A DNA stretch of 64,000 bases, from assembly GCA_020851735.1 (NCBI GenBank), contig JADZCD010000022.1, positions 6,438-70,437 of the forward strand, read 5' to 3'. This document shows positions 2,361 to 63,530 of this stretch, piece after piece; within the stretch, counting starts at the first letter, position 1; every line of letters begins with the position of its first letter. Source of the stretch: Phycisphaeraceae bacterium. GTDB taxonomy: Bacteria > Planctomycetota > Phycisphaerae > Phycisphaerales > Phycisphaeraceae. The notes under the pieces were generated by a model that did not search any database, was not told the DNA's origin, and saw only the letters and a program-made list of their open reading frames with translations. The translations under genes and the position numbers were made by a program.

Positions 2361-2510
2361 GTACCCCCCGGCAGAGCCGGGGGCTGAAATGGGGGAGGTT
2401 GGGAGAACGCACACAGCACTTCCGGAGGCCCGGAAGATGCTGTGTGGCACCCGACGGGGGGAGTTGAGGGATTTCGGGGGCGGGGTCGGGGACTTCCGGG
2501 ATTCCGGGGG
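2361..2510. repeat. mosaic of short repeat modules (hairpin B, hairpin C, CTTCCGGG units)
   Basis: Three modules are present. GTACCCCCCGGCAGAGCCGGGGGCTGAA (2361-2388). The nested palindrome CACACAGCACTTCCGGAGGCCCGGAAGATGCTGTGTG (2410-2447). GACTTCCGGGATTCCGGGGG (2491-2510). The same modules recur at 18222, 26175, 31648, 45749 and 51596. Confidence 0.85.
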
Positions 2511-2639
2511 TCCCGAGGGGGGTCGGCTATTTGGTAATGTAAGGACTTGGACGTGGGGAGAGGGGCGCGTGCCTGGAAGGGTTGGGCGACGGTGGGCGCC
2601 TTTAAGGGAATAGGAAGCGATCAGGACAGGAGCGATTGG

Positions 2640-3218
2640 ATGAAAGTTTTAGGTTTAATGGGCAGCGCCCGGCGGGACGGCAACACCAACGACCTGGTGG
2701 ACGTGGTGCTGGCGGCGGCGGCTGAGCAAGGGGCCCAAACGGAAAAGATCGTGCTGGCGGACTATCGCGTGGAGCACATCGAGAATTGCCAGGTGTGCAA
2801 GCAGCGCGGGGCGTGCGTGCACGCGGACGACGACTTCGACAAGCTGATGGCCAAGGTGTACGGGTGCGACGTGTTCATCTTCGGTTCACCGGTGTACTGG
2901 TACACGGTGAGCGGGCGGCTGAAGGTGTTTTTGGATCGCTGGTCGTGCGAGCTGTACAAAAGCAACGACGAGTTCTGCCGGAAGATGAAGCCCAAGGCGG
3001 GGGGGATCGTGACGGTGCAGGAAGAGAGCACCTACGAACGAGCGGCGTCGTGCATTGAGGCGTTGGAGAAGACGGTGAAGTACGCGCCGGGGGCGACGTA
3101 TTTAGGTTATGTGCTCGGGCCGGGGGGCAAGCGCGGCACGGTGCTAAAACACGAGGCGACGGTGGCAGCGGCGCGTGAATTGGGGCGCAAGGCGGCGGCG
3201 TTCAGGCCCGCAAGTTAA
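2640..3218 (+). CDS. NADPH-dependent FMN reductase / flavodoxin-like flavoprotein
   Basis: MKVLGLMGSARRDGNTNDLV..VFIFGSPVYWYTVSGRLKVFLDR is the typical FMN-reductase/iron-sulfur flavoprotein N-terminus. I chose the internal ATG at 2640, which has a GGAG upstream, because the 5' extension of the 2547 ORF lies in repeat DNA. Confidence 0.7.
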   Translation: MKVLGLMGSARRDGNTNDLVDVVLAAAAEQGAQTEKIVLADYRVEHIENCQVCKQRGACVHADDDFDKLMAKVYGCDVFIFGSPVYWYTVSGRLKVFLDRWSCELYKSNDEFCRKMKPKAGGIVTVQEESTYERAASCIEALEKTVKYAPGATYLGYVLGPGGKRGTVLKHEATVAAARELGRKAAAFRPAS

Positions 3219-3308
3219 GGGGCGCGAAAACGGGTCCGCGGGCGTGACGAGTTCAAAGTGTGCTGGATACGGAGTAAGGCGGGGGAATCAAGCCTAAAGA
3301 GGTGTTGC

Positions 3309-4847
3309 ATGTTCGCGCTGCATCGTGTGCCGACGAATTATTTGAATTTCCTGAACACCAGCCCGCTGGTGGATGACGAAAACGCTTTTCGGCGGGCCGG
3401 TATCGAGAACGCGCCGCTGCCGAGCTACGCGGAGGCGCAAAAACTGCTGCCGGAGCCTTCCTGGCCCGGGCACGAAGACGCGCTGGCCTGCTGGCACAAA
3501 GTCTGGGAGCTGGCGTTTACGAAGAATCTCAAAAAGGCTTCGCCGGACAACGGGTTTTGCGCTAACTACATCGACACGGCCTTTAACGGCAATCTGTTCA
3601 TGTGGGACAGCGTGTTCATTCTGATGTTTGCCCGTTACGGGGCGCGGGCGTTTGCGTTTCAAAAGACGTTGGACAACTTCTATCACCGCCAGCGCGGAGA
3701 CGGGTTCATCAGCCGGGAGCTGTATCCGTATCCGGGCGGGGAGGTGTTTCACCCGCATGATCCATCTTCCACCGGGCCCAACGTGCTGGCCTGGAGCGAG
3801 TGGGAGCATTTTCTGGTGCACGCGGATCGGCAGCGGCTGGCGGCGGTGTTTCCGTGTCTATTGGCGTATCACCGCTGGGTGCGCAAGTACCGGACATGGC
3901 AGGACGGGTCGTATCACAGTTGCGGATTGGCCTGCGGGATGGACAACCAGCCGCGCGTGGGCGAGGGGTATTTCGGGCACACGGATCACGGGCATTTGTC
4001 GTGGATCGACGCGACCAGCCAGGGCCTGTTGTCCGCCCAGCTGCTGGTGAAAATCGCCGGCGTGCTGGGGCGCGCGGACGAAGTGGAAGCGGAGCGTGGG
4101 GAAGTGGCGCGGCTGGAAAAATGGATGAACGAGCGGGCCTGGTGCCCGGCTGACGGGTTCTATCAGGACGTGCATCCGGAGCACGGGCACAGCCGGGTGA
4201 AGTCGATCGCGGGATTCTGGCCGCTCCTGGCGGGAGTGGTGCCTCCGGAGCGCGTTGAGCGCCTTTGCGCGTGGCTGGAAGATGAAAAGACCTTCAAGCG
4301 TGCCCATCGCGTGCCGTCGCTGGCGGCTGACGCGCGCGGCTACCACGGGCAACGCGGCGATTACTGGTGCGGGGCGGTCTGGCCGCCGACGAATTACATG
4401 CTGTTGCGCGGGCTGACGGGCGTGGGCAAGGACGACTTGGCTTACACCATCGGCCGCAATCACCTTGACGCGGTCGTGGAGGTGTTCAAGCAGACCGGCA
4501 CGGTGCACGAGAACTACGCGCCGGACCGCATGGCGCCCGGCGAGCCGGCCAAGGCGGATTTTGTCGGTTGGGGCGGGCTGGGGCCGGTGGCGGTGCTGCT
4601 GGAGTATGTGTTCGGGCTGCGCCCGGATGTGCCGGCGGGTCGTCTGGTGTGGGATGTGCGTTTGACCGAGGAGTTCGGCGTGCGGCGATATCCGTTCGGC
4701 CGTGAGGGCATGCTGGAGCTGCACTGCCCCGCCCGGGCGAAGGCGACGGAGCGGCCGGCGGTGAGGATCGTCAGCAACATGGCGGTGACCGTTGAATTGC
4801 GCTGGGCAGGCGGGCGCGCGGACATCGCTGTGCCGGCAAAGTCCTGA
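3309..4847 (+). CDS. GH63/GH37-like (alpha/alpha)6-barrel glycoside hydrolase
   Basis: About 510-aa ORF with GNLFMWDSVF, CGMDNQPR and YWCGAVWPPTNYM motifs, resembling mannosylglycerate-hydrolase/trehalase-type enzymes. The start is ambiguous (3258 or 3309). Confidence 0.6.
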   Translation: MFALHRVPTNYLNFLNTSPLVDDENAFRRAGIENAPLPSYAEAQKLLPEPSWPGHEDALACWHKVWELAFTKNLKKASPDNGFCANYIDTAFNGNLFMWDSVFILMFARYGARAFAFQKTLDNFYHRQRGDGFISRELYPYPGGEVFHPHDPSSTGPNVLAWSEWEHFLVHADRQRLAAVFPCLLAYHRWVRKYRTWQDGSYHSCGLACGMDNQPRVGEGYFGHTDHGHLSWIDATSQGLLSAQLLVKIAGVLGRADEVEAERGEVARLEKWMNERAWCPADGFYQDVHPEHGHSRVKSIAGFWPLLAGVVPPERVERLCAWLEDEKTFKRAHRVPSLAADARGYHGQRGDYWCGAVWPPTNYMLLRGLTGVGKDDLAYTIGRNHLDAVVEVFKQTGTVHENYAPDRMAPGEPAKADFVGWGGLGPVAVLLEYVFGLRPDVPAGRLVWDVRLTEEFGVRRYPFGREGMLELHCPARAKATERPAVRIVSNMAVTVELRWAGGRADIAVPAKS

Positions 4848-4934
4848 GAGATGTCGGGCAGCGCAATTGCGCTGGGCTGCCGGGCGATCCGGGGTGAGCG
4901 AATATCCTGCGCGGGGCACGGGGGGCTAAGACAT

Positions 4935-6344
4935 TCAACCTCGGCGGGCTCGTTGCAGATCTTGCGGGGAGATATGCCCGCGTTGAAAGTCATCTTCCAG
5001 CCAGTAGTCGTGCGTGCGGATGCGGAATTCCAGGAGCGCTTGCCGCATCGAATCCGCGACGGATTGGAGGGCGGGGTCGTGAATCAGATTGCGATTTTCC
5101 AGGGGGTCTGCCTGCAGGTCGATCAATTCCTCGGCGTCGCGATGCCGAAAGCGTTCGACGGGGCGGCGGCCTAAGCTGCTTAAGTTGTTCTGGCGCACGG
5201 CGGTCCAGGTGGGGGAGCGAAAGACATCGGCGGGAATCGGCTGCGGCAGTTGGTGGGCGAGGTGCTGGGTGAACTTGTAGCGCCGCTGGCGCACGGTGCG
5301 GTAGGGAAAGTAATTGCTGACTTCGTGGAAACAGTGGGAAAAGAAGGTTTGATCCCAGGCGGTGTCGTCTGGTTGCGTCAACAGGGGCTGGAAGGAGCGC
5401 CCGGGCAGGTCGGCGGGCCAAAGCGTGCGGGGAACCTGCAGCAGATCGAGAATCGTGGGCATGAAGTCGGACCAGTTGACCAGCGCCTGGCAGCGATGGC
5501 CAGCCGTTTTCGATGCTTCACTTCCGGGGGCACTTGCGGGGGCGGAGGCACTTCCGGGGGGGGCGATGATCAGGGGGCAGTGGTGGCCGCTGTCGAAGGA
5601 AGTGGCTTTGGCGCCGGGGAAGGGCATGCCGTGATCGGAGGTCACGATGACGAGGGTGTCGTCAGCCCGGCCGGCGGCTTGCAGGGCGCTAAGCACCTGG
5701 CCCACGGTGTGGTCGTAGCGGGAAATGGCCGCGTAATACTGGGCCAGGTCTTGGCGCACCAGCGGATGATCGGGAAGAAAGTCGGGCACGCTGACGTCGG
5801 CCGGGTCGTAGCGGAAGGCGGGGAATTCACTGGCACAGCGATCTAAGCCAAAGCCGGTCCCTTCGCGGTGGGGATAGGAAGGGGCGACATGGAGATAGAA
5901 AGACGCGGAGCCGATCTGATTCAGGAACGAGCTGGTCGCGTCGGCCAGGGCGCGTGGCGAAGCGTTGTCTTTCTCCGCGGCCAGGAAATCAAAAGGATAG
6001 ACCGACGCGGGGGCGAAATGCTGTTTGCCCAGGCACGCGGAGCGGACGGGCGTTTCTTTGAGGATTCGCGGCAGGGAGCGGACGAATTCGTGGGTGCGGA
6101 AGCCGTGGACGGAGTGGCAGTGGCCGTATTGGCCATGGGTGTGGGTGTAGAGTCCGGTGAGCAGGTTGGCCCGGCTGGCGGCGCAGGAGACGGAGGTGCA
6201 GAAGGCGTGGTCAAAGACGCTGCCGCGCTGGGCCAGGGCGTCGATGTGGGGGGTCTGGATGGCGTGGTGGCCGTAGCAGCCGGCGATGGGCGACCAGTCG
6301 TCGGCGATGATCAACAGAACGGAAGGAGCGGAGGAAGAGGGCAT
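4935..6344 (-). CDS. sulfatase (formylglycine-dependent type)
   Basis: N-terminus LLIIADDWSP..CTSVSCAASRANLLTG carries the C-x-A-x-R sulfatase signature, followed by VTSDHGMPF. It contains an in-frame repeat insert, PGSASAPASAPGSEAS. Confidence 0.85.
   Translation of the reverse strand: MPSSSAPSVLLIIADDWSPIAGCYGHHAIQTPHIDALAQRGSVFDHAFCTSVSCAASRANLLTGLYTHTHGQYGHCHSVHGFRTHEFVRSLPRILKETPVRSACLGKQHFAPASVYPFDFLAAEKDNASPRALADATSSFLNQIGSASFYLHVAPSYPHREGTGFGLDRCASEFPAFRYDPADVSVPDFLPDHPLVRQDLAQYYAAISRYDHTVGQVLSALQAAGRADDTLVIVTSDHGMPFPGAKATSFDSGHHCPLIIAPPGSASAPASAPGSEASKTAGHRCQALVNWSDFMPTILDLLQVPRTLWPADLPGRSFQPLLTQPDDTAWDQTFFSHCFHEVSNYFPYRTVRQRRYKFTQHLAHQLPQPIPADVFRSPTWTAVRQNNLSSLGRRPVERFRHRDAEELIDLQADPLENRNLIHDPALQSVADSMRQALLEFRIRTHDYWLEDDFQRGHISPQDLQRARRG
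5519..5563. repeat. CTTCCGGGGG tandem units inside the sulfatase CDS
   Basis: CACTTCCGGGGGCACTTGCGGGGGCGGAGGCACTTCCGGGGGGGG; the reading frame is preserved. Confidence 0.85.
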
Positions 6345-6449
6345 GGCTTAGCACTCCAGCGCGTCCGGACGACCGAGGAGCAAGAGAGGGCTGAGGGAGA
6401 CGATCGAGGCACAGAAAAGTCGGATCGGAAAGTCTCCCTGGCCGTCTCA

Positions 6450-8079: not shown

Positions 8080-8156
8080 GCCACAGATGAACGCAGATTA
8101 ACGCAGATACAAGTCAACGACTCCATGGTTCGTGTTCATCTGCGTTTATCTGCGGC
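8080..8156. repeat. inverted-repeat element, family D (GCAGATnAACGCAGAT / ATCTGCGTTTATCTGC)
   Basis: CCACAGATGAACGCAGATTAACGCAGATA..GTTCATCTGCGTTTATCTGCGGC. Related copies lie at 60615-60691 and 63376-63402. Confidence 0.85.
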
Positions 8157-9969: not shown

Positions 9970-11089
9970 AGAGTGTCCGCAACAATGGTCTTCGTTTCGG
10001 ATCGTCGTCCAGCAAGTGGTTGTCGTTAAACAGGTCTAAGTTGCCGATCAGCCACCGCTGACCTATCGCGCGGACAGCTGGATCGCGGACTTGCTCCCAC
10101 AGCGCGCCCGCGATGGCGCCCGCGCGGCTGATGGTGAAAGGGCGATCCTTAAGACGCACGGGCTCGACGGGGATGGGGCGCGTGAGGCCCAGGGCATTGT
10201 GCATTTCCCCGAGTTTGCGGTAGGCGTCGGCAAGGGCCCCGTCACGCTGCCTCCAACCTGAAGCGGCGCCGATGCGTTCCAGAAGAGGGAGAAGCGTGGG
10301 AGCACATCGCAATTGCGCGAAAGCTGAGCCGAACCACTTGGGATACGGCGGATATGACTGTTCCATCAGGAAACCTAAACGCATCATGTCGCGGATAAGG
10401 CGCCAGGCAATGATGGTCGATCCTAAATTGTCTCCCACACTTCCCGCCCGACCCGTTAAGGTTTCGTCTTCGTTAATCCGGGCCCAGCACGAGGCAAGAA
10501 CATAAAGCCAGATGTCGCGCGGATACCAACGGAATCGCTCACGCACGGCCTGGAGGCCCAGGTCGTCGCGGAAAACACGCCCTGCGACCATGGAACGGAG
10601 CTTCTGGTGCGGTATCGTCAGCCAGTCGGCGGGTGACAAGGGCTTGTCCAAATCAATACCGATTTCCTTCTGAAAGAAGCCTTGAAGGGTGTACATTTCG
10701 ATTCGAGGCTCGAGGCCCGGATCATTCGGCCTCTGCTGTAATCGCTCGCCTATGCCACGGACGGCGTGGCTGTAAATGCGCAGCGGGTAGCCCCTGTACA
10801 TAAGTGGCAGATGCTCCATGGCCAGCGCTCGAATGGCTTGCGTGCGCGTTTCCAAGTCCTCGCACTGGAGAAAGAGCATGACCCTCGGTCCCCAATCGTG
10901 ATCGGCGGACATCGGTGTGTCGAAACCCAACACGTCCGATCCGCCGCCTAAAACCGCGGCGGCGTAACGCGAATTCGGCAGATGCGCGTCGAGCATGGGG
11001 CGCACCAGTTCCGTAAAGAAGCCCTCGGCCAAGTCAAGGCCGGGGATGAAGGGCGGACGCGGCTGGCCATCAGAAAACAATTTTGTCAT
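9938..11089 (-). CDS. DUF4037-like protein with a pol-beta-type nucleotidyltransferase motif
   Basis: VLGGGSDVLGFDTPMSADHDWGPRV matches the G-S..D-x-D signature and the 'DHDWGP' hallmark that I recall for DUF4037 proteins. The family assignment is from memory. Confidence 0.55.
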   Translation of the reverse strand: MTKLFSDGQPRPPFIPGLDLAEGFFTELVRPMLDAHLPNSRYAAAVLGGGSDVLGFDTPMSADHDWGPRVMLFLQCEDLETRTQAIRALAMEHLPLMYRGYPLRIYSHAVRGIGERLQQRPNDPGLEPRIEMYTLQGFFQKEIGIDLDKPLSPADWLTIPHQKLRSMVAGRVFRDDLGLQAVRERFRWYPRDIWLYVLASCWARINEDETLTGRAGSVGDNLGSTIIAWRLIRDMMRLGFLMEQSYPPYPKWFGSAFAQLRCAPTLLPLLERIGAASGWRQRDGALADAYRKLGEMHNALGLTRPIPVEPVRLKDRPFTISRAGAIAGALWEQVRDPAVRAIGQRWLIGNLDLFNDNHLLDDDPKRRPLLRTLYEVGGNHGTT

Positions 11090-15155: not shown

Positions 15156-16643
15156 ATGGCCAAGATTGATCCGGCGCTTTGGCGCGACATGATGGATTAT
15201 CTGCGTCGCCGGCATGCTCCGATCTGCCGGCAGTGGTTTGAGAATTTGCGTCCGGTGGAGCTGGACTCGGGTCTCTTAAAGATCCACACCGAGACGCGGA
15301 TTCAACAGAACTACCTGCAGAAGCGCTGCGCCGAGCAGTTCACGGAAGCGGCGCAGGCAGCCACGGGCGCGTTGGTGGCGGTGCGATTCATCAATCTGGA
15401 AGGTCACAACGGCGGCGACGGCCACGAACGCGTGGGCGCCGCGGCCGGCGGAGCTTCGGCGGGCGTCGGTGGGGCCACTTCGGCTTCCGGGGGCGGGGGC
15501 AATTCCGGGGGGGGCGTGGCGACGGCGGCGGCGCCGGTGGCGATCAGGGGGCGATCGGAAGTGCAGGTCATCGAGTTGCGCAGCCAAGGCAATGACGCGC
15601 TTGAGCCTGACGAGTTACTTCTGAGTCCCGACTACACCTTTGACACTTTTGTGACCGGTCCCAACAACCGTCTGGCTTATGCGGCCGCGGTGGCGGTGGC
15701 CAATCAACCCGGGACGGCCTACAACCCGTTGTTCATTCATGGCGGGGTGGGGCTGGGCAAGACGCACCTGTTGCAGGCCATCTGTCAGAAGATTCTCCAG
15801 GTCAATCCCAAGGCCCGCATCTGCTACCTGTCCTGCGACGCGTTTATGAATCGCTTCCTGGATTGCGTGCAAAGCGGGAAGATGAACGAATTCCGCAACC
15901 GCTACCGCCACGTGGACGTGCTGGTGATCGACGACATCCACTTCCTGGCCAAGCGGGAGCAATCGCAGGAAGAGTTCTTCCATACTTTTAACGCCCTTTA
16001 TCAGAGCAATCGGCAGCTGGTGCTCTCCAGCGATTCGCCCCCGGCCGACATTCCGCAGCTTGAGGAGCGGCTGGTAAGCCGGTTCCAGTGGGGACTGGTG
16101 GCGGAAGTTTCCAAGCCGGCGTATGAGACGAGGGTAGGCATCGTGCGGGCCAAGGCCAAGCTGCGAGGGATCGTGCTGCCCGACGACGTGGTGAGCTACA
16201 TCGCCGCGAAGATTGACTCCAACGCCCGCGAGCTGGAAGGGGCCATCACCACCGTGCAAGGCTGCGCCGCCCTGCAGGATCAGGAAATCTCCCTGGAGCT
16301 GGCCAAAAACGCCCTGGGTGAGCCGGGCCTGGAATCGCGCGGCAGCCATCAAGTGACGCTGCAGAACATCATCGACGTGGTAACCGAGTTCTACAACGTC
16401 AAGCTCAGCGACCTGCAGAGCAAGCGGCGGCACAAGTCCATCACCCTGCCGCGCCAGGTGTGCATGTGGCTGGCCCGCAAGCGAACGCGCTTCAGCCTCC
16501 AGGAGATCGGCGGGTACTTCGGCGGGCGGGATCATACAACGGTGATGCACTCGATCGACATCATCGAGGAGCGCATGGGCGCGGATTCGAACTTCGGCAA
16601 GCAGATCGAGCAACTCGACGGCCGGCTTACTTCCACCAAGTGA
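15156..16643 (+). CDS. dnaA: chromosomal replication initiator DnaA
   Basis: AAA+ core NPLFIHGGVGLGKTHLLQAI and VLVIDDIHFL, with the C-terminal DNA-binding motif GGRDHTTVMHSI. The domain-II linker carries repeat-derived Gly/Ser/Ala sequence. Confidence 0.96.
   Translation: MAKIDPALWRDMMDYLRRRHAPICRQWFENLRPVELDSGLLKIHTETRIQQNYLQKRCAEQFTEAAQAATGALVAVRFINLEGHNGGDGHERVGAAAGGASAGVGGATSASGGGGNSGGGVATAAAPVAIRGRSEVQVIELRSQGNDALEPDELLLSPDYTFDTFVTGPNNRLAYAAAVAVANQPGTAYNPLFIHGGVGLGKTHLLQAICQKILQVNPKARICYLSCDAFMNRFLDCVQSGKMNEFRNRYRHVDVLVIDDIHFLAKREQSQEEFFHTFNALYQSNRQLVLSSDSPPADIPQLEERLVSRFQWGLVAEVSKPAYETRVGIVRAKAKLRGIVLPDDVVSYIAAKIDSNARELEGAITTVQGCAALQDQEISLELAKNALGEPGLESRGSHQVTLQNIIDVVTEFYNVKLSDLQSKRRHKSITLPRQVCMWLARKRTRFSLQEIGGYFGGRDHTTVMHSIDIIEERMGADSNFGKQIEQLDGRLTSTK
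15475..15514. repeat. CTTCCGGGGG-type units inside the dnaA linker
   Basis: CCACTTCGGCTTCCGGGGGCGGGGGCAATTCCGGGGGGGG, translated as ..TSASGGGGNSGGG.. Confidence 0.8.
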
Positions 16644-19021: not shown

Positions 19022-19200
19022 GGGAAGAGGAGGAGTTTGGAATTAGGAGTTAGGAGATGGGGAAATGCAGTGCCAAATGACGAATTAGATCCCTGACGCC
19101 GTATGTTAGGCCTTATACACCATCCGCAGGCGGGGGGTGGTAGGATGACTTGGGCGAAGGGGACTGAAATTTTCACCGCGGGTACGAGCGGGGCTTTGTT

Positions 19201-26095: not shown

Positions 26096-26174
26096 CGTGT
26101 AAAAAAAGTCCGCTGGACACCAGCATAAGCACGCTCAAAGTAGATCGACCGTCAAGGCCAAAACCCCGCAAAGC

Positions 26175-34404: not shown

Positions 34405-34416
34405 GCCTCGCCAGTG

Positions 34417-44205: not shown

Positions 44206-44283
<78 letters not shown>

Positions 44284-45717: not shown

Positions 45718-45741
45718 AAAATAATCCTCCCCCGGAAGCAA

Positions 45742-50077: not shown

Positions 50078-51448
50078 CTACCCCCGCGGGCTGAACGCCA
50101 GGTCCGTCCTCAGCCACTTCCGATACGCCACCCCCGCGATGCCCACGCCCAACAACGCCTGGACGCCAGATAGATAAGCCAACGCGGAAACGCTTATGAA
50201 TTCCTTTAATACGATTGGGGACATGAAAACGATAACGAAGGCCAAACCCAGCCAGACATCACGCCACCTAAGACGCAACATAGCCATCGGCCAGCATGAG
50301 ATTCCCCAAAGGCTGATCTGACAAAAACCCGAGAGAAGAAGCGCAAACCAGAAATTCCCCGTCTGCAGCAGCGCCGGCTGCCAAAGTGCTGTGGCGGCAA
50401 TCATCGCTGCAGCCAAACTGAGCCAAACGGACATCACATCGCACAACATGGCCAAACCGATCTGTCGGAAGTATGCCCGCCGATAAATCGGCCGCAATGA
50501 TTCCGTGGCCAAAACCCGATAGCGCTGCACGTAACAGGACAGGGATACCATCCATGCCCAATAGGTGAATAGAAACGGGTTAAAACCGTGACTGTCGCTT
50601 GGCCCGCCGCGTCGGCCGTCAAGGCCCATCAACATCGTCATCAGAACGAAACAGACCAGCCCCATGGCTCTTGGCGAAAGCAATCCCAACTTGGTGAAGC
50701 GCCAGCGGTTGATCCGCTGCCAGGCATTTTTCGCCGGCCTGAAAACCGCTTCGCCGGGCCGACCCATGAACCAACGCTGCCACGATGACTCCGCGAGGTA
50801 TTGTTTTTGGGTAAAGCCCGTGGCGCCCCCGGTCTTCCAGCGCATCAATCCGCGAAAGCCTCTGCTATCCTCCCGCCAGCCCGCCAAGTGCTTGGCCAAA
50901 GCCCAACCTGCCAGAATGCTGGTTAACCACAGCGGTATCGCCCAGGCATACGGCAGACCATCCGGCCATGCCTTGAACCATTGATGGTGAGAGTGAATCA
51001 TGGGTATGGAGAACCCTATCGATCCTGCCAAGACGAAAATCCATACCCCACTGGGCATCACGACCGCTAGCCATAACATCGCGATGGTCGTAGCGAAGAA
51101 CAAAGACGTCACCGTCAGTACCGACGCCTGGCAAGCCAGGGCGAAGGTCGCGGGAAAGGCGATGTAGCACAACACCACGATCAACCCCGCAATCAGCACA
51201 TGCGGCCCGGCAAAGCCCGGAAGCAGCCGTGAACGGGGATTGGCAAATTGGGAGTTCAGTTGTGCGAGTAATCCCAAGAGCAGCTGCATAATCACAAACG
51301 GGAGAAAAGCGAATTGAAGCAACATCTTGTTGTCGTGGCTCAGAAGGACAACTAGCCCGATATAGGCCAAAACCGTTGGAATTAACATCCACCACATCAG
51401 CGGCCGCGTGACGTACGTCAGCAAAACCTGCTTGCAGCGCTCAAGCAT
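50078..51448 (-). CDS. polytopic membrane protein (putative permease partner of the upstream ABC ATPase)
   Basis: About 10 hydrophobic segments. Its start overlaps the ABC ATPase stop by 8 nt. Confidence 0.6.
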   Translation of the reverse strand: MLERCKQVLLTYVTRPLMWWMLIPTVLAYIGLVVLLSHDNKMLLQFAFLPFVIMQLLLGLLAQLNSQFANPRSRLLPGFAGPHVLIAGLIVVLCYIAFPATFALACQASVLTVTSLFFATTIAMLWLAVVMPSGVWIFVLAGSIGFSIPMIHSHHQWFKAWPDGLPYAWAIPLWLTSILAGWALAKHLAGWREDSRGFRGLMRWKTGGATGFTQKQYLAESSWQRWFMGRPGEAVFRPAKNAWQRINRWRFTKLGLLSPRAMGLVCFVLMTMLMGLDGRRGGPSDSHGFNPFLFTYWAWMVSLSCYVQRYRVLATESLRPIYRRAYFRQIGLAMLCDVMSVWLSLAAAMIAATALWQPALLQTGNFWFALLLSGFCQISLWGISCWPMAMLRLRWRDVWLGLAFVIVFMSPIVLKEFISVSALAYLSGVQALLGVGIAGVAYRKWLRTDLAFSPRG

Positions 51449-52520
51449 GATGCAGCTCCAAAAAAATGTCCTCCAGATTCAAATCCTCCACCTCCACCCG
51501 CACCGGCCAACGCGCCTCGATCGCCGCCACCAACTCCGGCCCCGCCCCGCGCACCGTCCAAATCTCCCGCCCCTCGCCCCTCTCCCTCCTGATCACCCCC
51601 GGAATCGCCCCCGGAAGTGTCCCCGGAAGTGCTCGTGAACGTTCCGCCGGTTTAGCCCCCGGCTCTGCCGGGGGGTACGTTCTCCCACCTTCCACCCCCG
51701 GAAGCGCCCCCGCCCCCGGAAGCAAATCATTTGGGTGCCACACAGCAGCGCGCAGCGTGCTGTGTGCTGTCCTGCCCTCCACCCCCGTTATCTCCGGCAG
51801 CGCACCGCCGGGGTCTTTGGGATAAACGCACAACCGCTTGACCTGGTCCTTCAGCTCATCCAACTCCCCGCAGTAATCGATCTTCCCGCCCTTAAGAATC
51901 GCCACGCGGTCCGCCACGCGCTCTAAGTCCGAGGTAATGTGCGTGGAGAACAGCACCGTCCGCTCCCCGCCTCCTTGGCCGATGATCTCCAGCAGCATGC
52001 GCAAAAAATCCCGCCGCCCCACCGGGTCCAGACTCGCCGCCGGCTCATCAAGCACCAGCAGCCGCGGCTCATGCCCCATCGCCAGCAAAATGCCCAGACG
52101 CTGCAATTCCCCCGGCGACAGCTTCCCCACCTTCGTTTCCGTGTTGATCTCCAGCCGCTCCCCCAGCCGCTGCGCCAGCGCCTGATTCCACTTTGGATAA
52201 AAGCTGGCCGTATACGCCATCACCTGCCGGGCCGTCATCCACGGATACAGCGCGATCTCCTGCGGCACGTAGCCAAGCTGCCCCTTGCTGGCCGGGCTTA
52301 AATCCCACGAATCCTCCCCGAACACCGTCGCCCGCCCGCCTTGCAGACGCAGCAATCCCAGCGCGCACTTGAGCAGCGTCGTTTTCCCCGTGCCGTTCTT
52401 GCCCAACAGCCCCATCACCGTCCCGGCCGGCACCGAGAGGTTCAACTCGTCCAGCACCGGCGGATTGGCCCGTTTAAACCCTTTGGTCACGCCCGCAAGC
52501 TCCATGATCTTCTCACTCAC
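51441..52520 (-). CDS. ABC transporter ATP-binding protein with a long C-terminal repeat insert
   Basis: Walker A GKNGTGKTT, signature LSPGELQRL, Walker B LLVLDEP and an H-loop STH. About 90 residues near the C-terminus are encoded by repeat modules. Confidence 0.9.
   Translation of the reverse strand: MSEKIMELAGVTKGFKRANPPVLDELNLSVPAGTVMGLLGKNGTGKTTLLKCALGLLRLQGGRATVFGEDSWDLSPASKGQLGYVPQEIALYPWMTARQVMAYTASFYPKWNQALAQRLGERLEINTETKVGKLSPGELQRLGILLAMGHEPRLLVLDEPAASLDPVGRRDFLRMLLEIIGQGGGERTVLFSTHITSDLERVADRVAILKGGKIDYCGELDELKDQVKRLCVYPKDPGGALPEITGVEGRTAHSTLRAAVWHPNDLLPGAGALPGVEGGRTYPPAEPGAKPAERSRALPGTLPGAIPGVIRRERGEGREIWTVRGAGPELVAAIEARWPVRVEVEDLNLEDIFLELHHA
51596..51770. repeat. mosaic (CCCCGGAAG units, hairpin B, hairpin C) inside the ABC ATPase CDS
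   Basis: CCCCCGGAATCGCCCCCGGAAGTGTCCCCGGAAGTGC..TTTAGCCCCCGGCTCTGCCGGGGGGTAC..CCACCCCCGGAAGCGCCCCCGCCCCCGGAAGC..GGTGCCACACAGCAGCGCGCAGCGTGCTGTGTGCTG. Confidence 0.9.
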
Positions 52521-52924: not shown

Positions 52925-53006
52925 TAGAGAGATGTCAACCCCCCTCTGCCCTCTACCCCAACCCCCAACCCCTAATTCCTAACTCCTAACTCCTAATCCC
53001 CCCTTC

Positions 53007-53832: not shown

Positions 53833-53943
53833 TAGCCCCGCATGGAAATGCGGGGCCGGCTTGGTAATTCTCCGGGGGCCACTTCCGGGGTAGCTTCCGG
53901 GGGGCACTTCCGGGGGACCTTCCGGGGGACCTTCCGGGGGGGG
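53833..53943 (+). repeat. element A copy 1 (hairpin + CGGCTTGG + CTTCCGGGG array)
   Basis: TAGCCCCGCATGGAAATGCGGGGCCGGCTTGGTAATTCTCCGGGGGCCACTTCCGGGGTAGCTTCCGGGGGGCACTTCCGGGGGACCTTCCGGGGGACCTTCCGGGGGGGG. Confidence 0.92.
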
Positions 53944-57320: not shown

Positions 57321-57602
57321 GGTGTGGTGGTCGCGGAGGGAAGTCTGTCCGGGATCCGGGTCGGGGAGTAGGAGAGTCGTGGCGGGGGGATGCCGCGTCA
57401 GGGGAGTGGGTGGGAATGGCAGGGTAGGGCCGTGAGGAGTGGGGGGGGCGTGGGCCGGCCGAATGGCGCCGGCTCGGGGAGGTCGCGATAGAGGGGGCCG
57501 GAGTTCGAGGGAGCCGGGCAGGGGAACCTGCCTCCGGGAGGCGCCGGGGAGCGGGGGAAATGTTTAGCGGCGGTTCGCAGAACCGCGCGCGAATGTCCGG
57601 GG

Positions 57603-57683
57603 GCACTTCCGGGGGCGACGATAGCCCCGCATGGAAATGCGGGGCCGGCTTGGTTACTTCCGGGGTTACTTCCGGGCGTACTT
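57603..57683 (+). repeat. element A copy 2
   Basis: GCACTTCCGGGGGCGACGATAGCCCCGCATGGAAATGCGGGGCCGGCTTGGTTACTTCCGGGGTTACTTCCGGGCGTACTTCCGGGGGGGG. Confidence 0.92.
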
Positions 57684-57705
57684 CCGGGGGGGGATTTATC
57701 GGCTA

Positions 57706-57766: not shown

Positions 57767-60421
57767 TCACATCAACGTCACCGGGTCCACGTCCACAGCC
57801 GTATGCGCGTCGGACTTAAGCACCCGGGCATTGCGCAGCCCCGTCAGCAACTTCTGCAAGCGCGACGCGTCCGGGGCAAGCACCTGGATTTCCTGCCGGT
57901 GAAACTGATTAATCCGCGCAATCGGACAAGGCATCGGCCCCTGCACGCGGGCGCCGGTCTGCATCTGCTTTTCCATGGCCGCCAGCGCCTCGGCCAGCTT
58001 CCGCCCATGGGCCAGGCAAGCCTCCAAGTCACGATCGCGCACCACAATCCGCGCCAGCCGCGTGATCGGCGGCAGATTCACCTGCTTGCGCAGCGCCAGC
58101 TCGCCCCGGGCAAACTCGTCAAAATCATGCTTGGCCGCCAAGGTGATCGCCAACTCCCTGGGACTGAACGATTGCACCACCACCAGCCCCGGATGCCCAC
58201 CCTTCCCGCCGCGCCCCGCCCGCCCCGCCACCTGCGCCACCAGTTGAAACGTCCGCTCCGACGCCCGGAAGTCCGGCATGTTCAGCGCCGTGTCCGCCGA
58301 GATCACCCCCACCAGCTGCACATTGGGAAAATCCAACCCCTTGGCGATCATCTGCGTCCCCAGCAGCACCTGCAGCTCGCCCCGCCCAAACGCCTTCAGC
58401 GCCGCCTGATAGTCCCCGCTGGTGCTCATCGTGTCCGAGTCCATCCGCAGCAGCGTCACGCCCGGAAACTTCTTGCCCATCTCCTCCTCCACCCGCTGCG
58501 TGCCCAACCCGAACACCACCACCTTCTTCCCGCACACCGGGCAGACACGCGGCAGCAACTGCTCGGCCCCGCAGTGATGACACCGCACCAGCCCGCCGTA
58601 GGAGCTTTTCTGCCCAGCCGAGAATTTGTGATAGATCATCAGCGCATCGCAATACGCGCAGTTGAGCATCCACCCGCAGCCATGATCCGGACACGCGATG
58701 TAATTGGCATACCCCCGCCGATTGAGCAGCAAAATCGCCTGCCCGCCGTTCGCCATCGTCTGCCTCAGCGCCCCCTCCAGCCGCATGCTCAGCAGATGCA
58801 CCCCGCGCCTTAATTTGCGCTCTTCCTTTAAATCCACGATCTCCACCCGCGGCAATTTCAAGCCCGTCACGCGCTCCGGCAGGCGATGCAGCACATACCC
58901 CCGCCCCGATTCCGCCGTCGTGTTGTAATACGATTCCAGGCTCGGCGTGGCGGACCCCAGCACCACCGGAATATCCAGCAGCTGCGCCCGCCGCACCGCC
59001 ACGTCCCGCGCGTGATAACGCGGCAGCTGATCCTGCTTGTAGCTGCCGTCGTGCTCCTCGTCGACAATGATCACCGCCAGATTCGCCAGCGGCGCAAAAA
59101 TCGCCGACCGCGCCCCGACCACAATCCGCGCCTGGCCCGTCCGTATCCGCCGCCATTGCTCATGCCTCTGGGCCGCACTCAACCCCGAATGCAATACCGC
59201 CACCGTCGCCCCAAAACGCCCGTAAAACCGCGCCACCGTCTGCGGCGTAAGCGCAATCTCCGGCACCAACACAATCGCCCCCGGAAGTGCTCCCCCCCCT
59301 GAAGTGCCCCCGGAAATGTCGGATCGTTTAGCGGGCGATCGCAGATCGCCGTCTCCGTTGCCATTGAGCAAATGCTCAATAACCCGCAGATACACTTCCG
59401 TCTTCCCCGACCCCGTCACCCCGTGCAGCAGGTGCACGGAAAATCCCTTGTGAATTGAATCCGCGATCCGATCCAACGCCGCACGCTGATGTTCGGATAG
59501 CTCCAGCCCCACCCCCGCTGCCGCGCCGCCGCCAACGTCGCCCCCCGCCTTAGGCGCCGAAATAAAACTCAACATCGGATCCACCGCCCGCACCGTCGGA
59601 CGAATCGACGACTCCAATAGTCCCATCTCGATCAGCCGCCGCAGCGGCGCCGTGGTTTTCGCACCCGCCAAATCCGCCAACGCACGCAACTCAATCCACC
59701 CCCCCTCATGTTCCCCCTCAATCCCCCCCTCGCTTCCCCCCTCGTCTCCCCCGCCATCCTGCCCCGCTCTGGCCTGCTCAGCGCGTTGGCACGCCACCTC
59801 CAACGCCCTTTTTTGCAGGGCGGAAATTCGAGGCGGTTTCCGCGAACCCCCCTGATCCCGCGCCGACGCGGCATCACTTCCGTCACTTCCGGGGGTACTG
59901 CTTCCAGCGGTAGCCCCGCATGGAAATGCGGGGCCGGCTTGGCTACTTCCGGGGTCACTTCCGGGGGGGAAGCGGACGAACGTTTGCAGCGTCGTGCCTG
60001 TGCCGTGTTTCACTGCCGCCGGCAGCATCGTCACCAGCACCATGCCCAGCGGGCAGCAGTAATACGACGCCAGCCAGCGTGCCAGCTCGATCAAGTCCTT
60101 GGTCAGCGACAGTCCCATCGGGTCGCGTCCCTGGATCGCCTTGATGGCATGCGGCTTTTGCGTTTGGGCCGGCTGCTGGGTGGTGACCTGGAGGATATAA
60201 CCCGACACAGCTTTATTGTTCTTACCCAACGGCACGACCACCCGATCGCCCACGCCCAAGTCAGACAGGTGTCCAGGCACAGCGTACGTCAGCCCATCGG
60301 GCCCGATATCCACCCCCTGTTCGAGCGCCACCAGCGCGAATCCGCAGCCATCGCCCGGCAGCGCGCCCAATGCCTTTGGGCCCGTGTCTGGAGCAGGAGA
60401 GTTATCAAACAAGCCAGCCAT
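57767..60421 (-). CDS. priA: primosomal protein N' (PriA helicase) with two repeat inserts
   Basis: LLHGVTGSGKTEVYL..VLVPEIALTPQ, DEEHD, the Cys-rich zinc region CPDHGC..CAYC..CHHCG..CPVCG, and QVAGRAGR. I chose the start at 60421 (MAGLFDN). Confidence 0.93.
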   Translation of the reverse strand: MAGLFDNSPAPDTGPKALGALPGDGCGFALVALEQGVDIGPDGLTYAVPGHLSDLGVGDRVVVPLGKNNKAVSGYILQVTTQQPAQTQKPHAIKAIQGRDPMGLSLTKDLIELARWLASYYCCPLGMVLVTMLPAAVKHGTGTTLQTFVRFPPGSDPGSSQAGPAFPCGATAGSSTPGSDGSDAASARDQGGSRKPPRISALQKRALEVACQRAEQARAGQDGGGDEGGSEGGIEGEHEGGWIELRALADLAGAKTTAPLRRLIEMGLLESSIRPTVRAVDPMLSFISAPKAGGDVGGGAAAGVGLELSEHQRAALDRIADSIHKGFSVHLLHGVTGSGKTEVYLRVIEHLLNGNGDGDLRSPAKRSDISGGTSGGGALPGAIVLVPEIALTPQTVARFYGRFGATVAVLHSGLSAAQRHEQWRRIRTGQARIVVGARSAIFAPLANLAVIIVDEEHDGSYKQDQLPRYHARDVAVRRAQLLDIPVVLGSATPSLESYYNTTAESGRGYVLHRLPERVTGLKLPRVEIVDLKEERKLRRGVHLLSMRLEGALRQTMANGGQAILLLNRRGYANYIACPDHGCGWMLNCAYCDALMIYHKFSAGQKSSYGGLVRCHHCGAEQLLPRVCPVCGKKVVVFGLGTQRVEEEMGKKFPGVTLLRMDSDTMSTSGDYQAALKAFGRGELQVLLGTQMIAKGLDFPNVQLVGVISADTALNMPDFRASERTFQLVAQVAGRAGRGGKGGHPGLVVVQSFSPRELAITLAAKHDFDEFARGELALRKQVNLPPITRLARIVVRDRDLEACLAHGRKLAEALAAMEKQMQTGARVQGPMPCPIARINQFHRQEIQVLAPDASRLQKLLTGLRNARVLKSDAHTAVDVDPVTLM
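59277..59316. repeat. CCGGAAG units inside the priA helicase core
   Basis: CGCCCCCGGAAGTGCTCCCCCCCCTGAAGTGCCCCCGGAAATG, encoding ..ISGGTSGGGALPGA.. between Walker A and the VLVPEIALTPQ strand. Confidence 0.85.
59874..59968 (+). repeat. element A copy 3, entirely inside the priA CDS
   Basis: TCACTTCCGTCACTTCCGGGGGTACTGCTTCCAGCGGTAGCCCCGCATGGAAATGCGGGGCCGGCTTGGCTACTTCCGGGGTCACTTCCGGGGGGG, read on the minus strand as ..PPGSDPGSSQAGPAFPCGATAGSSTPGSDGSD.. Confidence 0.92.
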
Positions 60422-60562
60422 GGTGTTCTGGTTTATCAGGAAATATTGCTGAAGGTTATGTCCAGGAAAGACTTGTAACTTACCCGCCCGTCCCCAGCCT
60501 CCGCCCGCCGCCTGCGGAAGGTATTCCAGGCGCGCTTCCGGCGGCACATCCGGGTCCCCGAC

Positions 60563-60797
60563 TAGCCCCGCATGGAAGAACGCTAGGCATCATTGGAAGA
60601 CGTCCAAGCATTTAGCCGCAGATAAACGCAGATGAACACTAGACATGGAGTTCTTGGATCCCATCTGCGTTTATCAGCGTTCATCTGCGGCCATATTGAA
60701 TCCTGATCTGAAATCATCTCGTTAATGCATAACGTTCGGAAATACGGGGCCGGCTTAGTTGCTTCTGCGAGGCACTTCCGGGGGCGCTTCCGGGGGG
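60563..60797 (+). repeat. element A copy 4, with its hairpin interrupted by a family-D inverted-repeat element
   Basis: TAGCCCCGCATGGAA | about 160 nt including GCCGCAGATAAACGCAGATGAAC..CATCTGCGTTTATCAGCGTTCATCTGCGGC | GGAAATACGGGGCCGGCTTAG, then CACTTCCGGGGGCGCTTCCGGGGGG. Confidence 0.85.
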
Positions 60798-60866
60798 TAT
60801 TGTACGGAGATTCACGCTCATCGTTGCGCTGGGCCGATGAGACTTTTGTTTGTGTGAAAGGCCGTC

Positions 60867-61112
60867 ATGGCAGGTAAGCGTGACAGGACGGATGTGAACT
60901 GTTGTCCCTTCATCGACCACGATGATGCCCGATGCGCCAAGCACTTCACCTTCCGCTGGCTTAACGAAGCATTCAATCTCTGCGCCAATGATTACCGCCA
61001 ATGCCCGACCTACGGGCAAATCCGCGCGGAAGCCCAGCGGGCCCGGGTGGTCGTTACCCTCCAAGGCCGACCCGTCAGCCAAGAACCGGGGCTACGAAGC
61101 GCCGCTTCGTGA
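60867..61112 (+). CDS. small Cys-rich hypothetical protein (81 aa)
   Basis: MAGKRDRTDVNCCPFIDHDDARCAKHFTFRWLNEAFNLCANDYRQCPTY has five Cys and coding-like codon usage. It overlaps the 5' part of the recombinase ORF in another frame. Confidence 0.4.
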   Translation: MAGKRDRTDVNCCPFIDHDDARCAKHFTFRWLNEAFNLCANDYRQCPTYGQIRAEAQRARVVVTLQGRPVSQEPGLRSAAS

Positions 61113-61980
61113 CTTTATCGGCTATTGCCGCGTCGAATGCGGATTCGCCCAGGCGACCTTGCGGGCCTATGCCTCCGACTTAGTCGAGCTGCAGCTCTGG
61201 ATGCAAGCCTTAGGCGAGCAAAGCTGGAAGGGACTGACCGCCAAGCGCCTGGCCGAGCACGTCCAAGCCCTGCATCACCGCGGTTTAGCCATCAGCTCCA
61301 TCGCCCGTCACGTCGCCACCATCCGCGTCTTCGGGCGCTACTTAAAATGGCTGGAAGAAGTCGCCGAGGACCCCGCCGATCTGCTTGAACAGCCCAAGGG
61401 TTGGCAGCGCGTGCCCGAAGTGCTCAGCGTCCAGCGGATGCGCAGCATTTTGGAGGCCCCCAGCCAGGAAGACGTGCTGCGTCTGCGTGACGCAGCCATT
61501 CTCGAACTGCTCTACGCCGGCGGGCTGCGGGCCAGCGAATTGGCGGATCTGGACCGCGTCCGCCTGCACCTGGACCTGGGCATCGTCCGGGTCGTGGGCA
61601 AGGGCAACCGCGAGCGCGTGGTGCCCGTGGGCAAGCCCGCCATGCTGGCCGTCAAAACTTATCTGGCCGAGCTTCGTCCCAAGCTCCAGCGCGAAGACCG
61701 CATCACCGATCGGCTGTTTCTCTCCCGCACCGGGCACCCGATCACCCGCATCGTCGTCTGGCAGATCGTCAGCAAATACGCCCGCCGCGCCGGCCTGCGC
61801 GACGTCCACCCCCACACCCTGCGCCACTCCTTCGCCACGCACCTGCTCGCCGGCGGGGCCGACCTCCGCATCGTTCAGGAAATGCTCGGGCACGCCAACA
61901 TCAAAACCACCCAGATCTACACCCACGTCGACCGCAGCCGCCTTAAAGACGTCATCCGCAAATTTCACCCCCGCGGGTAA
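60988..61980 (+). CDS. tyrosine site-specific recombinase XerC/XerD type
   Basis: N-terminal SAM-like domain (FIGYCRVECGFAQATLRAYASDL). The catalytic region has LLYAGGLRASEL, HTLRHSFATHLL, LGHANIKTTQIYTHV (R..HxxR..H..Y). The start is uncertain: the in-frame ATGs are at 60922, 60925 and 60988, and there is none closer to the conserved core. Confidence 0.85.
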   Translation: MITANARPTGKSARKPSGPGWSLPSKADPSAKNRGYEAPLRDFIGYCRVECGFAQATLRAYASDLVELQLWMQALGEQSWKGLTAKRLAEHVQALHHRGLAISSIARHVATIRVFGRYLKWLEEVAEDPADLLEQPKGWQRVPEVLSVQRMRSILEAPSQEDVLRLRDAAILELLYAGGLRASELADLDRVRLHLDLGIVRVVGKGNRERVVPVGKPAMLAVKTYLAELRPKLQREDRITDRLFLSRTGHPITRIVVWQIVSKYARRAGLRDVHPHTLRHSFATHLLAGGADLRIVQEMLGHANIKTTQIYTHVDRSRLKDVIRKFHPRG

Positions 61981-63015: not shown

Positions 63016-63140
63016 GGCTGTTCCATAGAAAAAACAGGACACATCAAACCGCAGTGCGGCCAGGGTCAGTCCGTGGTCCGATCGCGATCAATTAATGATA
63101 GCTGCCCACGCGGATCGTTGACGCCATCGCTTGCCGGAGA

Positions 63141-63222
63141 ACTTCCGGGGGTGTGCAAGCCCCGCATGGAAATGCGGGGCCGGCTTGGTCCCTTCCGGGG
63201 CCACTTCCGGCGTCACTTCCGG
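63141..63222 (+). repeat. element A copy 5
   Basis: ACTTCCGGGGGTGTGCAAGCCCCGCATGGAAATGCGGGGCCGGCTTGGTCCCTTCCGGGGCCACTTCCGGCGTCACTTCCGG. Confidence 0.92.
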
Positions 63223-63224
63223 CC

Positions 63225-63309
63225 GGGTGGCTGGGGCTAAGCAATGCGTGCCCTAGGGCCTTGTTCTCGATAGTCCCGCTGGGGCACGAAGACTTAGCCC
63301 CAGCCACCC
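63225..63309. repeat. perfect 17-bp inverted repeat GGGTGGCTGGGGCTAAG / CTTAGCCCCAGCCACCC with a 51-nt loop
   Basis: Arms at 63225-63241 and 63293-63309. There is an inner CGTGCCC/GGGCACG pairing. Confidence 0.9.
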
Positions 63310-63375
63310 AGCCGAACGTTATGACTCAAGTTAGAGCGTCAAAAATTAACCGCAAATAGAGTTTTTGCATCGGAA

Positions 63376-63530
63376 CTGCGTTTATCTGCGTTTATCTGCG
63401 GCCATTTGAATTCCTGGTCTGAAGTTATCGCGATGAGGCATCATGTTCGGAAATGCGGGGCCGGCTTAGGCACTTCCGGGGCACTTCAGGTGAACGTCCG
63501 GGGCCACTTCCGGCGTCAACTTCCGGGGGG
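63376..63530 (+). repeat. family-D right arm fused to an element A right half (copy 6)
   Basis: CTGCGTTTATCTGCGTTTATCTGCGGCCATTTGAATTCCTGGTCTGAAGTTATCGCGATGAGGCATCATGTTCGGAAATGCGGGGCCGGCTTAGGCACTTCCGGGGCACTTCAGG..CCACTTCCGGCGTCAACTTCCGGGGGGG. It is nearly collinear with 60662-60797. Confidence 0.88.

Follow-up and report, generated by a model that had tools for sequence, protein, structure and literature searches.

Are the short G+C-rich repeats found inside conserved genes of a planctomycete contig in-frame insertions of the same family that fills the spacers between those genes and, if so, how did they come to lie there? The question is raised by a 64,000-nucleotide stretch of DNA from a Phycisphaeraceae bacterium (GenBank assembly GCA_020851735.1, contig JADZCD010000022.1, positions 6,438 to 70,437 of the forward strand; hereafter the window), in which modules of one mosaic repeat family occur between genes and within genes such as dnaA, parB, and priA. 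A first-pass annotation, made from the letters alone, had claimed that the intergenic modules also occur inside intact open reading frames (ORFs). The window has a G+C content of 62%, and a gene map drawn from codon-position G+C content and Pfam matches placed 46 genes in it. Repeat arrays were recovered with Tandem Repeats Finder and a separate repeat finder, and copies were then compared by eye and aligned; a census of 10-mers at a threshold of 4 was discarded as too unspecific for a genome of such biased composition. Tandem arrays with periods of 9–25 nt were present at every coordinate named in that annotation, and its central claim held for all ten of the host ORFs it named, each of which stays open through its insert, with the Pfam domains expected for it recognized on either side.

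The family comprises four modules. Module A consists of tandem G5-containing units, (N)ACTTCCGGGGG, with a period of 11–13 nt, and its core, CTTCCGGGG, has 54 exact matches in the window against 1.4 ± 1.2 expected. Module B, (G)TAG-CCCCGCAT-GGAA-ATGCGGGG-CCGGCTTGG, is a hairpin with a 9-bp stem and a GGAA loop; its sequence GCCCCGCATGGAAATGCGGGGC has four exact copies (0 expected), one of them within priA at 59913. Module C, GTAC-CCCCCGGCAGAGCCGGGGG-CTNAA, has an 8-bp stem, and CCCCCGGCAGAGCCGGGGGCT is found four times against 0.02 expected, with three of these copies within ORFs. In module D, GGGTGCC-ACACAGCA-(variable inner hairpin)-TGCTGTGT, the outer stem is 9 bp long, and GGGTGCCACACAGCA...TGCTGTGTG is found in four copies against 0.25 expected. 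The hairpins measure 22–45 nt in the composites. Module B folds with −19.2 kcal/mol (z −3.1) and C with −17.6 kcal/mol (z −2.9); the full range is −17.6 to −28.4 kcal/mol, with z between −2.1 and −5.1 for B, C, and two D copies (four of the five copies folded), and the third D copy folded no better than shuffles. The first-pass description of the modules as palindromic does not fit the tandem A units, which are direct repeats; several genic inserts (those in the sulfatase, beta-lactamase-family, and ppk1 genes) lack inverted repeats altogether. Fixed orders of modules recur, namely A-B-CGGCTTGG-A (four copies), C-spacer-A (four copies), and D-AnATGnTTTG-A (three copies), and no terminal inverted repeats were found at the ends of A, B, C, or D composites in the window.

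Genic and intergenic copies share a common origin. Over 31 nt, three intergenic copies of module B match the one in priA without a single difference (100% identity), and the C-spacer-A composites of yggS and of an ABC ATPase gene are 81% identical over 68 nt. Because genic copies are near-identical to intergenic or other genic copies in this way, the hairpin-bearing composites are not linkers that arose independently. For arrays made of A units alone, a common origin is probable from the recurrence of one unit in about 10 unrelated genes.

The exact cores are eight-fold denser between genes than in coding sequence (3.41 versus 0.42 per kb), a comparison that the first-pass annotation had proposed for the whole genome as a check. 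Within coding sequence, all seven core-to-core spacings are multiples of three (30, 12, 18, 12, 12, 18, and 12), versus 9 of 15 between genes, where the remaining spacings include 13, 17, 19, and 29. As that annotation had noted, the inserts are read as LPG-, TSGG-, and PGS-type peptides: LPG is the reading of 12 of the 15 sense cores and PGS that of 6 of the 8 antisense cores, and both frames avoid the Arg/Lys/Phe-rich alternatives. Intergenic copies are themselves stop-poor, with 55 of 72 frames open (76%) compared with 3.27 of 6 (55%) in random 90-nt windows. The lack of stops is therefore a property of the family rather than a product of selection within genes, so that insertions of such modules would be filtered by length and loop tolerance only.

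Genic copies are in-frame insertions

Insertion status was established for eight of the ten hosts by alignment to relatives or solved structures (12–50 aa), and was judged from Pfam boundaries only for DnaA and the beta-lactamase-family protein. The alignments, which the first-pass annotation had named as a check, identified the segments in these eight hosts as lineage-specific insertions rather than ancestral parts of the proteins, and the Pfam matches PP_kinase and ParB_N are each broken into two stretches. In the sulfatase ORF (4935–6344, − strand), an array of CACTTCCGGGGG-type A units at 5519–5563 (+) lies antisense to the gene and is read as GSASAPASAPGS; relative to human SGSH (4mhx), the gap is exactly 12 aa, corresponding to 36 nt or three A units. 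The methyltransferase ORF (18095–19021, +) carries a composite at 18203–18324 (+) in which hairpin C, with a 9-nt expansion of its left arm (CCCCCGGCA ×3.8), is followed by a spacer and A units. Comparison with a 44%-identical homologue (P0122) leaves a 39-aa gap that is aligned on both flanks, which settles the question of a miscalled start codon. The ppk1 gene (19201–21510, +) contains an extra segment at 19735–19908 (+), about 48 aa without counterpart in PPK1 structures from the PDB, with a clear A-unit array at 19821–19870 read as SLPGSLPGAGALPGAEG.

Hairpin C, a spacer, and A units also make up the composite at 31589–31680 (−) in yggS (31070–31951, −), which lies inside the barrel domain that binds pyridoxal 5′-phosphate and accounts for about 48 aa that are extra relative to YggS in the PDB. 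A second A-unit array (31004–31090, +) crosses the 3′ end of the same gene and provides its stop codon together with the ~7 codons before it (PPRPPGS). The DegT gene (44290–45717, −) has about 40 aa more than aminotransferases in the PDB, encoded by an insert at 45338–45458 (−) with A units, a perfect palindrome (CCCGCCGCA/TGCGGCGGG), and G-rich hexamers; the palindrome, CCCGCCGCATGCGGCGGG, is unique in the window and was rejected as a member of the family. The largest composite, about 58 aa, resides in the ABC ATPase ORF (51441–52520, −) at 51596–51770 (−) and consists of hairpin D, two A units, hairpin C, a spacer, and three A units. It follows the nucleotide-binding domain, and some solved homologues extend to residue 260, none further. 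The two inserts placed by Pfam boundaries both occupy an inter-domain linker position. In dnaA (15156–16643, +), A units at 15475–15514 (+) are read as ATSASGGGGNSGGG in the domain II linker, between DnaA_N (residues 8–67) and Bac_DnaA (residues 156–316). In the beta-lactamase-family ORF (40737–43106, −), four A units with a period of 12 at 41804–41847 (−) precede the Beta-lactamase domain and are read as PGVFPGVLPGVLPGV.

In parB, degenerate A units (TTCCGGGGG, period 9) at 47814–47912 (+) separate the beta-strand IVRPS from SYELVAGERR in the N-terminal (CTP-binding) domain. About 30 residues are found at this beta-hairpin turn where PDB homologues have 2, and the predicted peptide covering the region includes ...IQLPAVGGISGFPVVPGIPGVGGLPSTSYELVAGER. 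A search of genome contigs with ParB returned metagenome-assembled genomes (MAGs) of Phycisphaeraceae as the sources of the closest ParB relatives, at 44–50% identity, and the segment is absent from two of these orthologues (L001 and L003). Two others, L002 (10331–10400) and L004 (~10519–10560), have inserts at exactly the same turn, that of L002 including a CTTCCGGGG unit, and this loop of the ParB N-domain seems to be a recurrent insertion hotspot. In the searched genome contigs, no synteny involving the remaining insert-host genes was found around the ParB orthologues (≤50% identity).

PriA (57767–60421, −) holds three inserts. A units at 59277–59316 (−) lie in sense orientation between helicase motif I and motif Ia and are read as ISGGTSGGGALPG, and the composite at 59874–59968 (+), antisense and situated between the 3′ DNA-binding (3′BD) and winged-helix domains, is composed of A units, a GTAG-tagged hairpin B with its GGAA loop, CGGCTTGG, and more A units. 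The third insert (59700–59752, −) is built from a different 12-nt tandem unit (CCCCCCTCGATT ×4.4) read as GGDEGGSEGGIEGEHEGG and is unique to this PriA. Across 60 aligned homologues, the first two fall in columns of 10–40% occupancy and the third in columns of 0%. From ORF Met43 on, the protein is identical to the NCBI entry "MAG: primosomal protein N'" (Phycisphaeraceae bacterium). In an AlphaFold model (predicted TM score 0.80), the inserts at residues 152–195, 219–240, and 354–377 are predicted to be mostly coil with a per-residue confidence (pLDDT) of about 40–68, between well-predicted domains; DSSP assigned a short helix at 366–368 within the third of these segments. The 59874–59968 composite was modeled as coil (pLDDT 39–64), and the 59700–59752 insert had a pLDDT of about 50. 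Mapped onto this model, a check that the first-pass annotation had proposed, the PriA inserts fall in coil loops of low confidence. Since relatives vary in length at the same ParB and PriA sites, the insert sites are, judged from the alignments, permissive loops of variable length rather than random positions.

Two elements of the first-pass account were not borne out. It had spoken of at least a dozen genes and named 10, with 11 sites among them; the count rises to a dozen only if the C-terminal tail of YggS, the ambiguous N-terminus of a CCA/polyA polymerase, and solitary units in three other genes are included. Nor does the host list uphold the statement that the hosts are mostly essential: only DnaA and, arguably, ParB and PriA are usually so.

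Intergenic copies, relatives, and genomic setting

Outside coding sequence, the modules form both plain arrays and composites. A mosaic at 2290–2525 (+) combines G-rich units, hairpin C, a spacer, a hairpin D whose inner stem is made of A-core sequence, and A units. Arrays of A units alone are found at 24796–24888 (+; periods 10–14) and 32888–32941 (+; period 12, 96% matches), and a seven-core array at 34405–34553 (−) forms either the 5′ leader or the ambiguous N-terminus of the CCA/polyA polymerase ORF (32947–34515, −). Hairpin D is followed by an A-unit array at 26171–26277 (−; periods 12–13), and a partial hairpin D with one A unit immediately precedes the likely start codon of DegT (45726–45776, −). 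The composite at 53833–53943 (+) comprises a GTAG-tagged hairpin B, CGGCTTGG, and six A units with periods of 12–13. Hairpin B is flanked by A units on both sides at 57594–57696 (+), between the convergent GH5 and priA genes, and at 63130–63227 (+); the right half of hairpin B followed by an A-unit array occurs at 63449–63531 (+). At 60555–60799 (+), hairpin B is broken in its loop by a 160-nt element (60578–60737) resembling a miniature inverted-repeat transposable element (MITE), after which come CGGCTTAG and A units. The element sits exactly in the GGAA loop, with GGAA on both flanks.

This MITE-like element, ~135–160 nt long, has a second copy at 63314–63448, and the two are 79% identical over 121 nt. 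Its ends display short imperfect terminal inverted repeats (GAACGYTA...), and its interior contains an inverted array, GCAGATAAACGCAGATGAAC / CATCTGCGTTTATC. The copies bracket a XerC/D-like integrase gene (60922–61980) and a DUF6263 gene, and related arrays are present at 8084–8154. Other short repeats in the window include eleven perfect copies of the heptamer CGGCAAT between the Amidohydro_2 and DegT genes (44206–44283), as well as three to four AGGAGTT-type heptamers upstream of ppk1, yggS, and a GntR gene, on the strand of each gene (19031–19056, 32013–32043, and 52955–53000). The latter constitute Shine-Dalgarno-like AGGAG arrays, and we take them to be reminiscent of the short tandemly repeated repetitive (STRR) heptamers of cyanobacteria.

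The relatives' loci contain few or no cores. Module D is conserved at loci of other Phycisphaeraceae MAGs, and its copies in L005 stand in inverted pairs separated by about 120 nt, with T·G wobbles, an arrangement like that of REPINs, the paired hairpins of repetitive extragenic palindromic (REP) sequences. These D hairpins, GGGTGCCACAYNGCA-(variable inner hairpin)-TGCKGTGTGC, are located in L005 at 6326–6449 and 20065–20188, in L002 at ~1499, and in L122 at ~1683; D looks like an undescribed REP family of Phycisphaeraceae.

A metagenome scan with a trimer of the A unit returned at least 120 matches, and the figures that follow hold among the matches listed. Most belong to a conserved but unrelated linker, (TPEV)n, in proteins of ~490 aa on contigs of 37–74% G+C. 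In this protein family (for example L014, L029, L039, L044, L065, L088, and L126), the linker lies ~75 residues from the C-terminus and is encoded by (ACCCCGGAAGTN)n; the use of the same codons from 37% to 74% G+C suggests horizontal spread or a constraint at the DNA level. Only a few contigs (L032, L058, L048, L118, and L122) resemble the window phenomenon. On contigs of about 60–64% G+C, the A unit is dispersed and also in-frame, in QueA and in a 1126-aa Fe–S protein, and a blastn comparison of the window with all the metagenome loci matched gave one short dnaA match only. Other short tandem repeats stand at ORF starts in L032, upstream of QueA, and in L058, at the N-terminus of the Fe–S ORF; their translations are CAMCDVRCAMCDVQC and IPHPANRKPHPANRIP, and leaders rich in repeats may be general in these organisms. 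In viral contigs, hairpin B had no match, and the 22 matches to a 15-mer of D, none of which has a partner arm, were put down to chance.

As for the wider setting, no known RNA family was found across the window at Rfam gathering thresholds, and ARAGORN found no tRNA in it. The + strand is G-rich for all genes between 1 and 24 kb bar one small methyltransferase gene (−0.06) and C-rich for all genes between 26 and 63 kb. This regional GC skew, up to 0.3 in absolute value, is independent of gene orientation and switches at ~24–26 kb. The sign change (+ to −) is of the terminus type, though the window holds dnaA (15 kb) and parB (47 kb); DnaA boxes number 7 against 5.9 expected, with no cluster and no origin signature in the window.

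Origin and spread of the modules

The explanation we favor, to which we would assign a probability of about 0.7, is that the modules belong to a mosaic repeat family resembling REP sequences and bacterial interspersed mosaic elements (BIMEs), that its composites have been dispersed, and that in-frame genic copies have been tolerated in loops, with A arrays altered by slippage. Composites (B flanked by A, C-spacer-A, and D-A) would be copied to new sites, chiefly intergenic ones. As the G+C-rich modules are nearly free of stops in six frames, a copy landing in a gene would be harmless if its length were a multiple of three and its site a surface loop or inter-domain linker. Tolerated copies would persist and be translated as disordered loops rich in Gly, Pro, Ser, and Leu (LPG, TSGG, and PGS), and the number of A units would shift by slipped-strand mispairing, limited inside genes to changes that preserve the frame. 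The inserts are probably translated, and probably tolerated without being of use; expansion of A arrays by slippage is likewise probable. Spread of the hairpin modules by a REP-associated tyrosine transposase (RAYT) of the HUH type, acting on single-stranded hairpins, is only a lead, offered by analogy with what has been proposed for GTAG REPs. The favored explanation also draws support from separate assemblies of the Joint Genome Institute (JGI): on contigs L032 and L058, the genes for QueA and for an Fe–S oxidoreductase contain the 12-nt unit in-frame.

Several observations weigh against this explanation. No transposase able to move the modules was found in the window, and the ~48 ORFs scanned for protein families gave no Y1/HUH (Y1_Tnp-type) match. 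The tag of hairpin B is exactly GTAG on just two of five copies (53831 and 59909), the others reading ATAG (57620), CTAG (60561), and CAAG (63155), and that of hairpin C is GTAC in three of four copies and GCAC in the fourth. All B copies in the window are solitary and on the + strand, with none in inverted REPIN pairs. The ParB orthologues L002 and L004 hold different inserts at the same site and, as far as aligned relatives tell, some of the length variation at the ParB and PriA loops predates this repeat family. Few independent events underlie the statistics on spacing and frame. Only one assembly is known for this MAG contig, and the insert boundaries, any target duplications, and the direction of gain or loss are provisional.

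Some of the same observations could be read as independent low-complexity linkers arising in place by replication slippage under G+C or G-run bias, their likeness to intergenic arrays being convergence. The insert sites are loops of variable length in relatives too, PriA has a private 12-nt repeat of another unit, solitary CTTCCGGGG units serve as apparently native LPG or PPEV codons (for example in L013 priA), and (ACCCCGGAAGTN)n encodes a TPEV linker in unrelated proteins worldwide, so that the unit can arise or spread elsewhere. Convergence nonetheless fails for the 31-nt hairpin module common to priA and three intergenic sites and for the 68-nt composite of yggS and the ABC ATPase gene, and one unit in about ten unrelated genes compares with 1.4 matches expected by chance; we consider such an origin quite unlikely. 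Retention of the modules for use has a little more to commend it, whether as hairpins or G-rich tracts in the RNA by which translation or mRNA stability is tuned, as DNA sites about one helical turn apart for a nucleoid or regulatory protein, or as disordered protein linkers. Strong hairpins, the T·G wobbles in a relative's D copies (which suggest a function at the RNA level), the G-rich strand being the sense strand in most genic arrays, the frame bias, the frequency of arrays in 5′ leaders and between convergent genes, and the conservation of D across genera are all in keeping with a function. The host genes are, however, functionally unrelated, their orthologues work without inserts, both orientations are found in genes, and no Rfam family was matched in the window. 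G-quadruplex motifs of the form (G3+N1-7)×4 are weakly in excess (35 versus a shuffle mean of 22 and maximum of 33), and G-quadruplex formation was set aside as a mechanism on that account. A domesticated function thus appears unlikely.

Errors of short-read assembly or binning, such as chimeric joins at repeats or collapsed arrays, are a natural concern for a MAG contig whose PriA is represented by a single sequence on a single contig and whose source genome was not found in the other collections searched, the more so as tandem arrays are liable to copy-number errors. Random misjoins would not, however, keep the frame and rejoin the right halves of the same domain at all of at least 12 genic sites, and because independent JGI assemblies contain the same unit in-frame in other genes, an artefact is very improbable. 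Least credible of all is removal of the inserts before the mature protein is formed, by RNA excision, translational bypass, or protein splicing. Nothing speaks for it directly, although strong hairpins flank some inserts; the inserts, at 36–175 nt, lack features of introns or inteins and have no Rfam match in the window; they are also always a multiple of three in length and stop-free in the host frame, which would be needless if they were excised.

Dispersal of a REP/BIME-like family with tolerated genic copies can also be taken considerably further. On a bolder version, the modules would be a coding-competent selfish family that has reached roughly a fifth of the genes in the genome, those for DnaA, ParB, and PriA among them, at a density far above that of the Rickettsia palindromic elements (RPEs) discussed below; the preference for LPG and PGS would reflect selection at the peptide level, and the family would be a major ongoing source of disordered loops in a free-living bacterium. 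We regard this as possible and rather doubtful. Should the density of the window hold genome-wide, this would be among the most heavily repeat-decorated bacterial proteomes, in a free-living rather than a reduced intracellular lineage. It would amount to a natural experiment on how loops of conserved machines tolerate insertions of 12–60 residues, at sites such as the DnaA linker, the hairpin of the CTP-binding ParB N-domain, lobe 1 of the PriA helicase, and the YggS barrel, and would provide a route by which selfish DNA seeds intrinsically disordered regions. In practical terms, such inserts lengthen proteins, split domain matches, and muddle start-codon calls in MAG annotation.

Comparison with known repeat systems

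Bacterial MITEs, among them intragenic enterobacterial repetitive intergenic consensus (ERIC) elements and the MITEs of Anabaena (PMC10969869), share with the modules the property that small non-autonomous repeats can make in-frame fusions. The A/B/C/D composites differ in having no terminal inverted repeats, and the separate element at 60578–60737 alone is MITE-like. Coding mini- and microsatellites of the variable-number tandem repeat (VNTR) type provide another likeness: 12-nt units, like those of 9 and 18 nt, keep the frame, copy number may change without frameshift, and the product is a low-complexity, probably disordered loop. Here, in contrast, one unit is common to about 10 unrelated genes and to intergenic spacers and travels with hairpin modules, which argues for dispersal and not just local expansion.

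REP sequences offer a closer parallel. Di Nocera et al. (2013) described REPs inside ORFs in several species, with Opitutus terrae, of the Planctomycetes-Verrucomicrobia-Chlamydiae (PVC) group, having the highest count of GTAG REPs, many of them in DNA replication and repair genes (PMC3733652). According to the same source, a minority of copies lie wholly in ORFs, grouped ones encoding ~20–80 aa, and REPs are targets for other mobile elements. As a class, GTAG REPs are imperfect palindromes of 20–40 bp with stems of 6–9 bp and a terminal GTAG or a degenerate form of it (GYAG, GTRG, or GTMG), and their cognate RAYT gene is typically flanked by repeats. Module B is likewise a short GC-rich stem-loop with a stem in that range, tagged with an exact GTAG in two of its five copies, mostly intergenic and sometimes within ORFs; replication and repair genes are again among the hosts, and one B loop contains the MITE-like element. 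The mosaics with other motifs are as in BIMEs, which also combine hairpin units and other motifs in recurring orders. The differences from GTAG REPs are that the tag is degenerate, that no inverted dimers and no RAYT were seen in the window, and that the commonest module and chief coding part is a direct tandem unit outside any REP definition.

Rickettsia are AT-rich obligate intracellular alphaproteobacteria, and their RPEs, invoked as a precedent by the first-pass annotation, remain the best-known case of repeats within genes. As portrayed in PMC10969869 and PMC3733652, the elements RPE-1 through RPE-10 (Ogata et al. 2000, cited there) occur in-frame in genes and also between them; lengths of ~100–150 bp and 44 insertions in the R. 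conorii genome are reported (PMC10969869). Both families are dispersed between genes and in-frame in unrelated functional genes, informational ones included, are compatible with the fold of the host protein, in loops, and have some hairpin parts. An RPE, however, is a single palindrome of ~100–150 bp with a conserved peptide, whereas the family described here is a mosaic of 22–45-nt hairpins and direct 11–13-nt units whose peptides vary by frame (LPG, TSGG, and PGS). Its local density, 10 of 46 genes, is above that of the 44 insertions spread over R. conorii, a comparison that holds for the window only. Homology to RPE-1 to RPE-10 is unlikely, judging from the gap in composition (62% G+C versus AT-rich).

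The RPE precedent thus stands and is wider than had been supposed, as it extends to intragenic REPs, so that the targeting of replication genes, which the first-pass annotation had stressed, is not new. Its further statement that this repeat family had not been described, for itself or for its lineage, agrees with our literature search, which was incomplete and returned nothing specific to either. The principle of in-frame repeats, and even a bias toward informational genes, is already known from RPEs and intragenic REPs. What the window adds is the lineage, the architecture of direct G-rich 12-mers joined to three hairpins, and the local density of 10 in 46 genes, an advance in extent, lineage, and repeat architecture rather than in principle.

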